Source of the DNA: a phage
Direction: 5' to 3' (one strand)
DNA: 64,000 bases
Sequence record: NC_100372.1
Part shown: positions 25,779-36,507 of the stretch, piece by piece
Layout of the letters: the number at the start of each line of letters is the position of its first letter
Position numbering within the stretch: position 1 is the stretch's first letter
Position numbers and translations under genes: made by a program
The notes under the pieces: generated by a model
What the model was told of the DNA's origin: nothing
Databases searched by the model: none
What the model saw: only the letters and a program-made list of their open reading frames with translations

Positions 25779-25873
25779 TTATGGTCGCATCAATATTAAC
25801 GTTTATGGGTGGCGTGGCATTCGGATTCATTCTTTGTCTGTTTATAGTTATCATGGCTATGCGAGGCTGAATT

Positions 25874-30553: not shown

Positions 30554-30840
30554 TGAAAGATTTGGTCAAGATCAAGATTAAAGATACCAATGGAGAACTC
30601 AGCCATTTTGGAATTAACGATGGTGACGAGCTGGTCGCCCACCTGCCTACCAAGGAAGTTGTAAGCAAGGCTGTTGCCGGAGAAGAAGATGCAATGCAGG
30701 CTGCTGGTGTGGATGAAAACTATGTAGCCATGTGCATGTGCCGAGATCAGGTTGTTCTGTATAAAGCGTATCGACCAAATGGAGCACCTGAGTGGCTTGT
30801 TTTCCGACCCGAAGGGTATGAAATTTTAGAGACACTATGA
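30553..30840 (+). CDS. Hypothetical acidic protein
   Basis: Coupled ORF. Confidence 0.5.
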   Translation: MKDLVKIKIKDTNGELSHFGINDGDELVAHLPTKEVVSKAVAGEEDAMQAAGVDENYVAMCMCRDQVVLYKAYRPNGAPEWLVFRPEGYEILETL

Positions 30841-30929
30841 TAAATCTTGCCAAGGTTGCAATGGCACTGCTAATTATTTGCTGGATAGTGACCTTGGCAC
30901 TATGTCTTGTATTTCATTAAGGGGGCTGT

Positions 30930-31986: not shown

Positions 31987-32313
31987 ATGCTAATGCCGAT
32001 TACTGTAAAAGAGCTAAATGAACGTGATGCAGGGGGCCTGTGGCCTGCACGGAAAATACGCTGCGTTTATATGAAAGAGAATCTTGAGCACCTTGATCAG
32101 CAGATTGCGGTTGGTGATATTTTCGAAGTTCTCTATTCTAATCGTCGCAACTGGGAAACCATTCAACCTTCCGGTTTTGTTCTTGCCAGACTTGATACTG
32201 GAGAAGTGATTATCCCCGGGCTGGATATTGTCTTCGAAATTATCCAGGAGTGGGATCCTGATAAGATTAAATATGAAGAGTTATTCGGTGAAGGTATTAT
32301 CAAGCCTGTGTGA
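31987..32313 (+). CDS. Hypothetical protein
   Basis: ORF. Confidence 0.5.
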   Translation: MLMPITVKELNERDAGGLWPARKIRCVYMKENLEHLDQQIAVGDIFEVLYSNRRNWETIQPSGFVLARLDTGEVIIPGLDIVFEIIQEWDPDKIKYEELFGEGIIKPV

Positions 32314-32621
32314 GGTGGATTATGTCTACAACGACAGCTAAATACTCCTATATGCCAGCAACCTCAGCAGAAATAGACTTCAGTTTCGATGTGTTTCCAT
32401 TGTTTGAGATAGTCCTGGCATACCCAACAATTCTATCTACTCCTGAATCACTTGTACCTGTTAAGTTGCAGAACGCTATGCATTCCATGCACTACAACAA
32501 TAAATGTAGGCACAGATGGTGTCAAGACGAGGAAAAAGATCTGGAGAGTTTGAAAGATTTTGACAGTCACCTTTTGACACCTTTTAGTTACTCAAACCTA
32601 GACAAACCCTCATGGGTATAG
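32310..32621 (+). CDS. Hypothetical protein
   Basis: Coupled ORF. Confidence 0.5.
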   Translation: MRWIMSTTTAKYSYMPATSAEIDFSFDVFPLFEIVLAYPTILSTPESLVPVKLQNAMHSMHYNNKCRHRWCQDEEKDLESLKDFDSHLLTPFSYSNLDKPSWV

Positions 32622-32645
32622 CAAAATATCAAATTTAAGGCACCT

Positions 32646-32672
32646 AGGACGCTCTGTGGCGTCCTTTTCTTT
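32646..32672 (+). terminator. Intrinsic terminator (AGGACGC-loop-GCGTCCT + TTTTCTTT)
   Basis: Hairpin plus T-run after 32621. Confidence 0.55.
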
Positions 32673-32834
32673 ATCTGGTGCACGATTCCATACCTTAGAC
32701 AATTAATCTCCTTACAGAGCGTTTAAAGGCATCCTACAAACAACTCTCTATTTCGAGCGTAGCGAGAACGCACGCCCGTTTTGACCCAAATCACCATACG
32801 CTCGGATTTTAACCAAACCCTCGCGGTGTTTCTG

Positions 32835-32863
32835 TTGACACATTACCGCTCCTGTGATAATAT
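32835..32863 (+). promoter_or_regulatory. Sigma70-like promoter (TTGACA-17-TAATAT)
   Basis: Perfect -35, 5/6 -10. Confidence 0.45.
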
Positions 32864-32895
32864 CCACACATCGTTTGAAGAATATGGGATACACA

Positions 32896-32976
32896 ATGAA
32901 AACATTGTCAGAGGTTTTAGTGGTGATCCTGATGATCATTGCGTCCATAGCGGCTGTTGCCGGAATATGCTTATAG
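32896..32976 (+). CDS. Very small hydrophobic peptide (26 aa, MKTLSEVLVVILMIIASIAAVAGICL)
   Basis: Single TM helix ORF 30 bp downstream of a promoter; weak RBS. Confidence 0.35.
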   Translation: MKTLSEVLVVILMIIASIAAVAGICL

Positions 32977-33051
32977 CATCGACACGTTCCAGCCATATGT
33001 CGATAAAGTCTTATTTTTTAAACATGTTGCCGGAATACTCACGGGTGGAAC

Positions 33052-33237
33052 ATGACCAACACACATGCATCTACAGAAACATCTGAAGGAGTGACAGAGG
33101 AAAACTTCAATTCTGAGGATTCTCTATCTCCGTCCCAGGTGGACCCTGAGGCTGATGACCTAACGTGGGAGGATATCATAGCCATCTGGTTCTCTATTAT
33201 GCCTGAGCACGAAGAGTTCAGAGGTGGGAGACTATGA
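33052..33237 (+). CDS. Hypothetical acidic protein
   Basis: ORF only. Confidence 0.35.
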   Translation: MTNTHASTETSEGVTEENFNSEDSLSPSQVDPEADDLTWEDIIAIWFSIMPEHEEFRGGRL

Positions 33238-33357
33238 AGCACCGAGCCCACATAAGTTTATCATGCTAAAGCATGGCCTGAAGGGGCAAACGTGCATAAT
33301 TCCATCGTATTGGAACGTATAAACCCCGTTCACACTCTCATTTCCAGAGGAGATTTC

Positions 33358-33573
33358 ATGAAAATAGAAATATTTGGTGGGGCTGACAACACTCGTGGCC
33401 TGATTTACCTTGAATTCGATGAATCTTACCTGCCAGAGGTGTTAAATATAGATGCTGTTGCGGAAGCCCTTGATGTAGACCCTAAAGATCTCTACTCCCG
33501 TGCTGAGATTGATGGTTGGGAAGAGACTCTGAACATTGATTTCAGTGAAGTAGTAGATGAACCTTTGGACTGA
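33358..33573 (+). CDS. Hypothetical small acidic protein (MKIEIFGG start)
   Basis: ATG after AGAGGAG RBS. Confidence 0.45.
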   Translation: MKIEIFGGADNTRGLIYLEFDESYLPEVLNIDAVAEALDVDPKDLYSRAEIDGWEETLNIDFSEVVDEPLD

Positions 33574-33936
33574 CACACAAGTCTGCTTTGCAGGTTTAGC
33601 TGCTCAGCTAAGGTTCTGGAGTCACCTATAACATCTTCCAACTAAATTTCCTACCAACACAGTTACTTACCCACCACACATGACTGTTTGCTTGTTTAGT
33701 GAGCAGTCATCCCTTGACATTCTTGCCTATCTTGATAAAATTAAGTTCTTCTCTTTTCTTTTACCGAGTAATTCGGGTTTTCTGTTCTCTTCGGTTTGAA
33801 GGGGTATGGAGATACACCTGAGTGAACAGGGTGAACAACCGAACCTTTAGCTATGGCATTAGCATGGCGAAGCGGACGGGTGACGAAAGAGGGGCCGGAG
33901 GACACCAGTCACTGCCATATAGTATATGGGTGATAA

Positions 33937-34476
33937 CCTGAAGAGTCTGAATAAGTGTTTAAGTACCAGTCAGAGGAAAAGGTGAATGGTAGCCGAAGGG
34001 GGAGGGGGGTTTCTTATATCTTTAATTTGTATACTTTATATACACTTGTAAACCAATTCAATTAGGATCTGTTTACCACACAAAGTGGATGGAGACAAAT
34101 ATCACCTATTAAACTTGAATTATTTATAGAAAATACCACAACACCGCTTAAGTCTTTGATTTTACACACAAATCTTACAAATATCCTACCTCCATATTTA
34201 ACATACTTGTAACATATTCCATATCCTACCTGCCTGATCAATTTACTCCCACCACATTCCCACATTTTCCCTGTCTGTACTACCCCACCCCCGCCGGGAG
34301 TCCCGTCATATCTGGCTTTCCAGCAAATATCACACCCACAAATATCATCACCTGAAGAGGGTTTCATCCCATAATACCTGCCTTACCTGAAGAGCGCTTC
34401 ATACACCACCTAAATTTTTTAATTGACCCCTCCCCGCCGCCGGAGAGGTTGGCTTTTCCCACACAGGCCTGAAGAG
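33937..34476. repeat. Four dispersed copies of CCTGAAGAG (about 33937, 34351, 34386, 34468)
   Basis: Read directly from the sequence. Confidence 0.6.
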
Positions 34477-34491
34477 TCAGCCAGAAATATC
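34097..34491. repeat. Five copies of AAATATC(A/C) in a CA-rich stretch
   Basis: Copies near 34097, 34179, 34325, 34340, 34485. Confidence 0.5.
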
Positions 34492-35023
34492 TGAACAGGT
34501 CCAGTTATGCCCCGATTTTGTGCTTGTCCTACAGGAGTGCTGCCCTGTCAGGAGCCGGTAGCGACTGGAGTGCTGCCAGGCGGACGGAATGGGAATACTT
34601 CTCATTTTTATAATAATTCTCAAATATCGAGGCAGTGAGGCAAATTAATAGGCCAGGCCGTTCACACAGTGGCACAACATTTGCAATCTATCTTGTGGGA
34701 GTGAATGAGAATACCTATCATTGTGAGAATGGTTATCATTACGGGCAATTTAACATAATACCTATTATGCGCACCACTGGCGATACATACAGGGATTGAT
34801 AACATGGGTTACTGTTTACGCACATAACAATTATATTTATTACTATTTGTGTGGGATATAGTTAGCAACCAATAGATTAGATATTGACCTGCAGACTTCT
34901 GACCGTCCAGACGTCTAAACGCCCACACAACAAGGATTATACATACATTCCTGAATGTAAACAGGGCCGCAAAAAATGCTACCATACCAGTTTGTAAATT
35001 TTTCATGCAGCACTTGACAAAGA

Positions 35024-35107
35024 GGAGAAAAACTTGTCTGACACAATGTGACAAAATTGCCACTTTTGACACTTTTACCTTTGACACAATATGACACAAT
35101 AACGGCT
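35024..35107. repeat. Array of TTGACA/TGACAC hexamers including three TGACACAAT
   Basis: Six TGACA(A/C) within 85 bp. Confidence 0.6.
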
Positions 35108-35136
35108 GTTACTATTCCATATCTCACTGTTTACGT

Positions 35137-35190
35137 ATAGACTGTTTACGCCTGAATAGTTTACGCCCAAACTGTTTACACAGAGATGAT
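35137..35190. repeat. Tandem CTGTTTAC(G/A) iteron-like repeats x4 (further copies near 34812 and 35583)
   Basis: actgtttacg, actgtttacg, tagtttacg, actgtttaca in series. Confidence 0.6.
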
Positions 35191-35202
35191 AAGCCATGAC
35201 AT

Positions 35203-35432
35203 TCGTTTGCATGAAAACAATTAACAAGTTAATAATATATGACATAATATAAAAGCAGGGCAACTATTAGAAGATCTATAGTTGCCTTGCTTGTTATGTC
35301 ATGATTAACTAAATACAAGGCAACTATGATCTGAATAATAGATTGCAGAAAAACTATCACGGGGGTGATTGTTACTGCTTTTATATTATGTCGCGACTCC
35401 GTCGCGCCATGCCATTCGTTTGCATAGTTGCC
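35203..35432. repeat. Nested symmetry block: 20-bp direct repeat, 15-bp perfect inverted repeat, four GGCAACTAT copies
   Basis: Direct repeat GCCATGNCATTCGTTTGCAT at 35203 and 35406; inverted arms GACATAATATAAAAG at 35251-35265 and 35378-35392; GGCAACTAT at 35269 and 35329 with reverse complements at 35288 and 35424. Confidence 0.65.
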
Positions 35433-36039
35433 TTATTGTTACAGGTAAAACAATTACATTATTAATTATTTCTTATCTTTCTCTTAGTCATCTAATGATT
35501 CCAGTCAGTATAGTAATGTACAGTAAACATTAGACGACTAAAGATTTCTCTGTGTATAATAACTTATCGTGACAATTTCGAACTGTTTACGAAAAATGTT
35601 GACACCTGAGCTGATTTATGTTATGCAGTTTACACGAATAATTATTTTATGCAGGTATTGACTATTCCGTTATTCTGTGGTTGGAATAAATACTTTGCAG
35701 ACTATAGAATGGCGTGCGTACGTGAATTCTGAGATCTGGCGGCTATAGTTATACTCGATTTTTCGCGTAGAACACGCTTTCGATGCTGTGTAAGTGTATG
35801 ACTTATAAAGATTTTTAGTTGTTGACAAGATATTGGAGATGTGCATCAGGTTAAAATTTGTGCAATAGCGGCATTACGTGCACTTTTGGGAGAGAAAACG
35901 GGTAAAAATGGCCCTGCTACCACACAATGAAAGATTATGCAATGGTTATTTTCCATGTATATTTGTACAGTATGTGGGATTGATGGCTAGTCAATTATTC
36001 CACTTGCCAGGTAGGGCCGTTTATGGTAGGAGAAGAGCA

Positions 36040-36068
36040 GACAAAAAGAAAGGGGCCTTTAAGCCCCT
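36040..36068 (-). terminator. Intrinsic terminator for the leftward block (AAGGGGC-loop-GCCCCTT with U-run on the minus strand)
   Basis: Hairpin followed on the minus strand by TTTCTTTTT, just downstream of gene 36088..36507. Confidence 0.5.
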
Positions 36069-36087
36069 TGATAATTCAGTTAAGAAA

Positions 36088-36507
36088 TTATAATGATTCG
36101 TATATTTCAAAAATCCGATTTGCCAGGTCGTTACGGTAGCGGAATTTTTCATCGCGCTTGATCATTAAATCCTTATAGCCGTACTCTTTAAGCACTTCAT
36201 TAACTTTATAGCGGCATACCTGCATATTATCTTGAGCGTCACCAATAAACTTGTTGCTGTGGTGCATTGCTTTAATTTCTTCTTCCAGGACCAGGGCAAC
36301 TACCCGGACCGGATCAAGCTGGTAGGCGGTAACATCTATGCGGCATTGTAGACGGCTTTTAACGTCTGCCACCGGATATACTGCAACCTCTTCCCCGTCA
36401 ACATTGACAATAATTAGTTTACCATCGATTTCGAATCCTTTCGCCGCCGGACCGTGACAAAAAGCGTTATCAAAGCTATATGCCGGATTATCAGATTTAA
36501 TGTTCAT
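36088..36507 (-). CDS. Hypothetical protein
   Basis: ORF with upstream promoter. Confidence 0.5.
   Translation of the reverse strand: MNIKSDNPAYSFDNAFCHGPAAKGFEIDGKLIIVNVDGEEVAVYPVADVKSRLQCRIDVTAYQLDPVRVVALVLEEEIKAMHHSNKFIGDAQDNMQVCRYKVNEVLKEYGYKDLMIKRDEKFRYRNDLANRIFEIYESL

Follow-up and report, generated by a model that had tools for sequence, protein, structure and literature searches.

A candidate early membrane peptide gene of a Vequintavirus phage with a 3′ end derived from a repeat array upstream of SoFic

The 64,000-nucleotide (nt) stretch of phage DNA analysed here (sequence record NC_100372.1; hereafter the window, in whose positions all coordinates are given) contains a short open reading frame (ORF) at 32896-32976 on the plus strand, which had been singled out in a preliminary description, made from the letters alone, as a promoter-driven, 26-residue hydrophobic peptide of a size typical of type I toxins, holin-like peptides or membrane regulators. 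Comparison with related genomes indicates that this ORF is a real protein-coding gene under selection at the protein level and, by its position and sequence, an altered allele of the family PHROG 34195 rather than a different gene; its product is best read as a small membrane peptide made early in infection. The end of the gene lies in a 70-bp insertion, which is one unit of a tandem repeat found in Escherichia coli upstream of the gene for SoFic, a single-gene anti-phage defence.

Both promoter and ORF had been predicted before, in Table S4 of the rV5 paper, in the annotations of Murica, JES2013 and the BASEL phages, and in PHROG 34195. The new element is the allele, whose gene end comes from the array upstream of a defence gene, together with sister phages that keep the unit and discard the peptide.

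The window derives from a Vequintavirus (rV5-like) phage. The region of the locus matches 117 phage records at 80-99% identity, most of them at 90-95%, with vB_EcoM-ECP26 the closest at 96.6%, and the matching records, where their taxonomy is stated, are Vequintavirus, that is, rV5-like E. coli myoviruses of ~137 kb.

Evidence that the peptide ORF is a gene

The proposal that the ORF encodes a peptide with a single transmembrane helix holds as a prediction. The helix spans approximately residues 7-25, and the ORF is the most hydrophobic of the short ORFs in the window, with a 19-residue Kyte-Doolittle maximum of 3.02 that ranks top among 369 ATG-initiated ORFs of 20-60 amino acids (aa), only five of which reach 2.5 or more over 19 residues. 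Judged by its composition, a product of this ORF could only be a membrane helix.

Conservation in related phages, named beforehand in the preliminary description both as a check and as the point on which the proposal could fail, was found, and with the substitution pattern of a coding sequence. The ORF is present in 20 of 21 aligned genomes, and over the 24 codons shared by those 20 genomes the 16 variable sites are distributed 1, 4 and 11 across codon positions 1, 2 and 3 (binomial P = 0.004). Of the 11 changes at third positions, ten leave the amino acid unchanged, and the replacements found among relatives are conservative (K/R, M/I, A/T/M and A/V). A divergent relative from IMG/VR (L004) encodes MKTSSEVLIVILMIIVAIAAVAEILYTL, with seven synonymous and five replacement codon differences, and has a strong GAGGAG ribosome-binding site. 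This pattern argues for a protein-coding gene whose amino-acid sequence is under selection.

Translation is taken to start at ATG 32896, as in the Murica annotation, where a ribosome-binding site is marked at the position of the GGGA run. An alternative in-frame ATG at 32884 would give 30 aa; the four codons from 32884 to 32896 change freely among relatives while always remaining purine-rich (GGGA, GGAA, GGAG, GAGG or GAAA), and start 32896 is favoured because these codons behave as a Shine-Dalgarno (SD) site and unlike a coding segment. The BASEL records take the upstream ATG, which gives 33 aa there.

Family membership follows the same lines. The PHROG 34195 profile (29 positions) matches the peptide with E 8.1e-16, covering residues 1-24, which are 92-96% identical to members of the family, and the genomic position agrees, after a terminator and the P162 promoter and before the gene for an acidic protein of PHROG 16356 (21 genomes). 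The same ORF is annotated in Murica (CPT_Murica147), JES2013 (gp152), EPFV3-03/2025 and the BASEL phages (bas57_0135), as hypothetical proteins of 29-33 aa. The 26-aa form has no match in Pfam at E < 1.

A conserved promoter upstream of the peptide gene

The consensus-like promoter of the preliminary description is supported, and its distance from the ORF, given there as within 30 bp, is about right. The −35 hexamer TTGACA (32835-32840) and the −10 hexamer TAATAT (32858-32863) are separated by a 17-nt spacer containing the TG of an extended −10 (32855-32856), which together give 10 of 12 consensus matches; the −10 ends 32 nt before the ATG and the predicted transcription start at ~32870 would leave a 5′ untranslated region (5′UTR) of ~26 nt. 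A lone 10/12 match of this kind is not significant, with 26 such sites in 7 kb against 18.9 expected. When a perfect TTGACA is required together with an acceptable −10, however, the window has 39 promoters where shuffled sequences give 3.9 ± 2.1, and these follow the direction of the genes: of the 20 on the plus strand, 19 lie at or before 33714, and of the 19 on the minus strand, 17 lie at or after 36585, the promoter of the peptide gene being on the strand expected for its block. Across 21 aligned genomes no change is seen in the −35 and almost none in the −10 (TAATAT or TAGTAT), against free variation of the spacer. The excess of TTGACA sites and the conservation of the hexamers around a variable spacer place this promoter beyond chance. 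The same site is predicted as P162, TTGACA-CATTACCGCTCCAGTGA-TAGTAT, in Table S4 of the rV5 paper (PMC3606486), and a promoter is annotated at the same position in the Gotham record.

As a separate observation, consensus host-type promoters are unusually dense across the early regions of the window and are co-oriented with the genes on either side of a 2.5-kb stretch that contains no ORFs.

An altered 3′ end and natural deletions

In its usual form, found in ~110 of 117 records, the gene has 29 codons and ends in ...AVAGILTGGT, with a stop that overlaps the start of the next gene (ACATGA). Such an ATGA overlap with the acidic-protein gene is, as a sequence arrangement, the classic one for translational coupling.

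In the window phage and in ECP26 the 70-bp insertion sits after codon 24, so that codons 1-24 (32896-32967) are ancestral and codons 25-26 with the stop (32968-32976) are derived from the insertion. The frame is shifted by +1 and the tail changes from ...AVAGILTGGT to ...AVAGICL, giving 26 aa instead of 29 and leaving the hydrophobic helix intact; the 26-aa form ending in CL is otherwise found only in ECP26. The insertion also removes the ATGA overlap and leaves 75 nt between the peptide stop and the next ATG, a separation by which translational coupling would be broken.

Carriers of the insertion amount to five of ~118 known genomes and form a single clade (the window phage, ECP26, NHEP1, B9-1 and S127 BCL3). 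In NHEP1, B9-1 and S127 BCL3 the same insertion is accompanied by a 108-bp deletion between two AATAT pentamers, which removes the −10, the leader and codons 1-23 of the peptide gene and rebuilds a promoter, TTGACA-17-TATGCT (10/12), directly before the inserted 70 bp. These three phages are viable and were independently isolated, and the peptide is therefore dispensable.

The inserted unit and the array upstream of SoFic

With the insert as query, the repeated sequence was found in 312 of 5,426 complete E. coli genomes, at a median of six places per genome and always on the chromosome, and further matches were obtained in 135 large Salmonella plasmids and in single plasmids of Pantoea, Cedecea and Pseudomonas. 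In E. coli 55989 (NC_011748 5012341-5012860; L023 4002-4521) the sequence is a 70-bp unit repeated head to tail in 7.4 copies of two alternating subtypes, an array that fills the gap between a small Xre-type helix-turn-helix gene and a 358-codon fic gene and reaches the fic start codon. The fic gene matches the PADLOC SoFic model at 2e-122 and encodes Fic_N, Fic and SoFic-like C-terminal (winged-helix) domains; nearby lie, among others, IS1 copies and a DNA-phosphorothioation-dependent restriction endonuclease. Compared with the 55989 units, the phage insert shows 96.8% identity over 62 nt with one subtype and 97.1% over 35 nt with the other, alternating one, and across E. coli it shows 93.2% identity over 73 contiguous nt in 215 genomes. 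In 233 genomes the unit query is matched over at least 80% of its length, and 233 have a SoFic allele of at least 99% identity; these numbers, compared as totals and not genome by genome, agree with a one-to-one association of unit and SoFic.

Similar units, in one to three copies, lie directly before SoFic-type start codons in a second E. coli allele (on an integrative element), a Pantoea plasmid, a Salmonella Infantis megaplasmid and a Pseudomonas plasmid. All copies of the unit share inverted half-sites, ATCGACA and TGTCGAT, ~13 nt apart, followed by a T-run and by AAACAT just before the ATG. In the phage insert the half-sites are at 32978-32984 and 32998-33004, again followed by the T-run and AAACAT, and the insert contains the only ATCGACA-N13-TGTCGAT pair of the window, where 0.03 would be expected. 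No fic gene stands behind the phage unit, its place being taken by the acidic-protein gene. The unit is thus found in host arrays that abut SoFic genes and as a single copy in the phage, which points to transfer from host to phage. The simplest route of capture would probably have been two template switches or crossovers with a host array, using the 13-nt identity of ancestral codons 21-24 to the start of the unit; by a rough estimate, a 13-mer match of this kind is not improbable for a 137-kb genome.

A literature search found no description of a 70-bp array upstream of SoFic and no paper linking SoFic to Vequintavirinae. In Shewanella oneidensis, SoFic dimers bind specifically, via the winged-helix domain, to the 100 bp immediately upstream of the protein's own start codon (bioRxiv 10.64898/2026.07.09.737422), CccR, a related Fic-winged-HTH protein of Yersinia pseudotuberculosis, represses its own promoter via two spaced inverted repeats (PMC9755527), and expression of the E. 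coli SoFic, which works in abortive infection, is toxic (PMC12249575). Because S. oneidensis SoFic and CccR bind upstream DNA, each 70-bp unit is, by analogy, probably a copy of a promoter-proximal operator of SoFic.

Two other roles for the repeat were considered and set aside. The phage unit is not called as an intrinsic terminator by a terminator scan, having a 7-bp stem with a 13-nt loop and an RNA fold no better than that of shuffled sequences (z −1.3). The host array was rejected as a type III (ToxI-like) RNA antitoxin, as the leading idea, since the toxin is an AMPylase and not an RNase and Fic-winged-HTH proteins bind upstream DNA. A two-unit host array folds better than shuffles (z −3.8), which may merely reflect the DNA palindromes, and a comparison of the array with Rfam gave only a chance microRNA match.

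Unit-like sequences were also noticed in other phages. Salmonella phage PVP-SE1 (NC_016071 ~117006-117071; L028 1501-1566) and seven other records of Seunavirus, a sister genus of Salmonella phages, carry one such sequence in a large ORF-free region; the match is weak (76% over 65 nt, E 0.02), with ATCGACA intact, a near-match TGTCGAA and AAACATG, and on this evidence captures of SoFic units by phages may recur. A scan of IMG/VR with the pattern CATCGACA-N10-16-TGTCGA-N15-28-AAACAT matched 37 viral contigs (L029-L065), approximately twice a rough estimate of chance, including a family of eight contigs with a near-identical element ending in AAACATG.

Function of the peptide and competing explanations

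The reading that we favour, with somewhat better than even confidence, is that the ORF gives a real, translated, membrane-acting accessory peptide; any particular target is held to be much less likely. We infer the following course of events from sequence comparison. The σ70 promoter, as the homologue of P162, would start transcription at ~32870 early in infection, and translation of the first ORF of the transcript would yield a peptide of 26 residues, little more than a single transmembrane helix. The peptide would insert in the inner membrane and work there as a small accessory factor, either by binding or modulating a host membrane protein or by tethering the acidic protein encoded next, which would normally be co-translated via the ATGA overlap. 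It would be accessory and not essential. In this phage one unit of the host array has been inserted at the 13-nt microhomology inside its gene.

Several points weigh against this reading. Amino-acid selection was measured on 24 codons only, among closely related genomes, and the peptide has no clear positive-inside signal to set its topology. An index of 5.8 billion proteins, queried with a 40-aa extended form, returned only the Vequintavirus cluster, and HMMER against 1.84 billion representatives returned only the query peptide; with no relatives outside the genus, a function is not transferable by homology. The natural deletions mean that the phage can do without the peptide and the replaced C-terminus in the window that the tail is not strictly required, both of which fit a weak or conditional function. 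A literature search also found no transcriptome or ribosome-profiling study of a Vequintavirus.

If the peptide product had no function of its own, the ORF could still serve as a leader, its translation opening the mRNA and delivering ribosomes to the acidic-protein gene. The ATGA overlap with the next gene in ~110 relatives, the weak and closely spaced SD of that gene (GGTGGA-AC-ATG), the absence of homologues outside the genus and the dispensability of the gene would all suit such a role. We nevertheless consider it unlikely, as a pure leader would not need a conserved helix, whereas purifying selection is seen in the 10 of 11 synonymous third-position variants and in replacements that are exclusively conservative, and the divergent relative L004 keeps the hydrophobic helix without any overlap, its next gene having a GAGGT site of its own; in the window, moreover, the coupling is broken by 75 nt and the ORF is still intact. 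The idea that the small ORF is an artefact and that the real gene lies in another frame, that of rV5 ORF162 (GTG start, 101 aa, continuous with the acidic protein), is the least credible of all those considered here. The rV5 GenBank record annotates ORF162 in this way and the frame is open in the window from 32781 to 33086, but the variable sites at position 3 of the small ORF correspond to position 1 of the rV5 frame, where they are mostly amino-acid-changing, the 70-bp insertion shifts the frame in the window, where it ends at 33086 and is cut off from the acidic protein, and two separate genes are given for the region in most later annotations. In rV5 itself (DQ832317 103372-103677; L007 910-1215), ORF162 is apparently in the wrong frame over its first ~30 codons, and the substitution pattern supports two genes there, for a 29-aa peptide and a 70-aa acidic protein. 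Of the classes put forward in the preliminary description, a type I toxin, with translation checked by an antisense RNA, is very improbable, despite a size of 26-29 aa and an extreme hydrophobicity that recall TisB, ShoB, Ibs and Zor, small hydrophobic type I toxins that the peptide resembles in both respects. A consensus scan finds no promoter-like site within ~100 nt on the minus strand (those closest to the gene being at 32525 and 33389), the leader of ~26 nt is short and unstructured (fold z −1.16 against shuffles), no Pfam toxin family is matched at E < 1 and no relatives appear among the 1.84 billion representatives; an addiction system would have no obvious use in a lytic phage, and the gene is the first of a polycistronic early operon, coupled in most relatives to the next gene. 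A lysis protein (holin, antiholin or pinholin-like peptide) is more improbable still: the peptide is a single hydrophobic helix encoded by a phage, but it has just that one helix and belongs to early genes behind a consensus σ70 host promoter, far from the lysin, which in rV5 is gp89 when this locus is gene ~162; its tail, CL here and LTGGT in relatives, has no charged residue, the gene is naturally deleted in three viable phages, and no lysis family is matched in PHROGs or Pfam. The third class of the preliminary description, a membrane regulator, may still fit the peptide.

A different kind of explanation places the weight on the inserted unit, which in this clade would be the element that matters, as an operator copy that, multiplied with the replicating phage DNA or transcribed from P162, would act as a decoy or regulator of host SoFic, and not on the peptide. 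Between the unit and the repeat upstream of E. coli SoFic the identity is 93-97%, and elements with both half-sites abut SoFic-type start codons in E. coli (two alleles), Pantoea, Salmonella and Pseudomonas; the binding of S. oneidensis SoFic to its own upstream 100 bp and the self-repression of CccR via inverted repeats are in keeping with an operator. The second event in NHEP1-type phages drops the peptide gene, keeps the unit and rebuilds a 10/12 promoter before it, a unit-like sequence is present in the ORF-free region of Seunavirus phages, and there is a precedent for capture of host repeat units by a phage in the pseudo-ToxI of PhiTE (PMC3475682). On the other side, there is one copy per genome in five of ~118 genomes of one clade, which is a single event that may simply be tolerated, and 13 nt of microhomology suffice for accidental capture. 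Binding by E. coli SoFic, restriction of Vequintavirus by SoFic and an effect of DNA binding on toxicity are all hypothetical, for CccR, regulation and toxicity are reported to be independent activities (PMC9755527), the unit RNA folds no better than shuffles (z −1.3), and the PVP-SE1 match is weak (76% identity, E 0.02). On balance, we regard an importance of the unit in place of the peptide as doubtful, and slightly more doubtful is its specific form as an anti-defence decoy, in which the DNA, amplified by replication, would soak up SoFic dimers, or an RNA would mimic the SoFic leader.

The operon and its surroundings

The small membrane peptide remains the preferred product of a gene that is the first of the last small early operon of the plus-strand block (Table 1). 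The small plus-strand genes form a long block, the last of them ending at 33573, and after a 2.5-kb ORF-free stretch the minus-strand block starts with a gene at 36088-36507. Both blocks flank the ORF-free stretch and converge on it; the rV5 map has the same layout, with a 'non-coding' box between genes 163 and 164 (PMC3606486). The preliminary description had set the ORF at the edge of the plus block and in the approach to a non-coding hub. Its closeness to the hub is upheld, but it is not at the very edge, as three more plus-strand ORFs (33052-33573) precede the ORF-free region.

Table 1. Coordinates of the features at the peptide locus
Feature	Position	Strand	Details
Intrinsic terminator	32646..32673	+	AGGACGC-tctgt-GGCGTCCT then TTTTCTTT; closes upstream early operon, after gene 32310-32621
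Near-invariant non-coding block	32750..32834	.	Inverted repeat CGAGCGTA...TACGCTCG; directly upstream of −35
σ70-type promoter	32835..32863	+	TTGACA-17-TAATAT with TG extended −10; homologue of rV5 P162
Shine-Dalgarno-like purine run	32886..32889	+	GGGA, 6 nt before ATG; GGAA, GGAG, GAGG or GAGGAG in relatives
Coding sequence, 26-aa predicted single-helix membrane peptide, PHROG 34195 allele	32896..32976	+	ATG 32896, TAG 32974-32976; product MKTLSEVLVVILMIIASIAAVAGICL
70-bp insertion, one unit of SoFic-upstream tandem repeat	32968..33037	+	13-bp direct repeats TGTTGCCGGAATA at 32955-32967 and 33025-33037
Second cistron, 61-aa very acidic protein, PHROG 16356	33052..33237	+	62-70 aa in most relatives, with ATG overlapping the peptide stop (ATGA)
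Final gene of operon and of plus block, 71-aa protein, PHROG 12108, rV5 ORF163	33358..33573	+	

The terminator upstream of the promoter is kept in all 21 aligned genomes and is annotated as such in Gotham and Murica. Between terminator and promoter, the ~85-bp block at 32750-32834 has a nucleotide diversity of ~0.02, against 0.10-0.17 in its flanks (20 genomes), and is kept even in the divergent relative L004, where the sole changes are in the loop of the inverted repeat. ORFs annotated over this block (rV5 ORF161 and those of the FV3 and BASEL records) are interrupted by stops in the window and in several relatives. The block has no Rfam match, no copy elsewhere in the window and no variation usable for covariation analysis, and its predicted RNA fold is not significant against shuffles (z −0.9 on the plus and −2.1 on the minus strand). 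Distant DNA searches, and tblastn with the last gene of the operon, returned only the ~117 Vequintavirus records, and the whole small operon appears confined to the genus Vequintavirus.

Other elements were noted in the ORF-free region (33574-36087). A strong promoter-like site with TG, TTGACA-16-TAAAAT, lies at 33714; iteron-like direct repeats occupy 35039-35180 (TGACACAAT and a ACTGTTTACG-type repeat in 3.6 copies); and inverted repeats, including an 18-nt perfect pair, are found at 35241-35441. The rV5 paper describes a skew change in this region (PMC3606486), which may contain the replication origin. The hub as a tRNA cluster was ruled out, as no tRNA genes were found in the window. Rfam gave no match in the window at gathering score and none within 32600-33400 at E ≤ 1.

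Four other short ORFs with a strongly hydrophobic helix were seen, of 27, 29, 44 and 60 aa, at 30837-30920 (+), 25781-25870 (+), 38072-37938 (−) and 40601-40419 (−) respectively. All are on the coding strand of their gene block, and this phage group may harbour several unannotated small membrane proteins.

Significance of the locus

Taken alone, the peptide gene is ordinary; large lytic phages have many small early membrane proteins that are restricted to one genus, and its product is one of them. Its coding status corrects the rV5 reference annotation of ORF162, and it offers a clean candidate for small-protein studies, for which the natural knockouts of the NHEP1 type serve as controls. The insertion records that a lytic phage has recently taken up DNA from the region controlling an anti-phage gene, and it draws attention to an apparently undescribed 70-bp tandem array before E. 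coli SoFic. Sister phages with and without the unit exist in collections, which allows a simple test of whether phages can turn the operator of a defence gene against it. Should the decoy reading prove true, the phage would provide the first case in which a defence protein is countered with a phage-borne copy of its own operator.

Comparison with known systems

The closest counterparts of the window peptide gene are the other members of PHROG 34195, which are the same gene in the same place, between a P162-type promoter and a PHROG 16356 gene. The window allele differs from them in its length (26 against 29 aa), its tail (CL against LTGGT) and the loss of the ATGA overlap; no member of the family has an assigned function.

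Beyond the family, the peptide is alike in size, in its single hydrophobic helix and in having almost no soluble part to AcrZ, MgtS, MgrB and KdpF of E. coli, small single-helix membrane proteins that act by binding larger membrane proteins. It shares no sequence similarity with these, however, and differs from them in being phage-encoded, early and usually coupled to an acidic partner. Type I toxins (TisB, ShoB, Ibs, ZorO and Hok) are similar to it in length and hydrophobicity, whereas the window gene lacks an antisense RNA signal, a long structured leader and a match to any such family, and is a member of an operon in a lytic phage.

The phage insert corresponds to one unit of the SoFic-upstream array of Enterobacterales, with both half-sites, the T-run and AAACAT in the same order, and, as a chimera, combines the two subtypes that alternate in the array of E. 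coli 55989. In contrast to the host arrays, the phage has a single unit and no fic gene, and the unit lies inside a coding region downstream of a phage promoter. The nearest parallel is the pseudo-ToxI of PhiTE, a phage that escapes ToxIN abortive infection by acquiring copies of a host repeat (the ToxI antitoxin RNA) or multiplying them (PMC3475682). Like the window phage, PhiTE is lytic and carries a unit of the tandem repeat upstream of a host toxin or defence gene, apparently acquired via recombination; ToxI is a proven RNA antitoxin, whereas the SoFic array is, by analogy with related Fic proteins, more likely a DNA operator.

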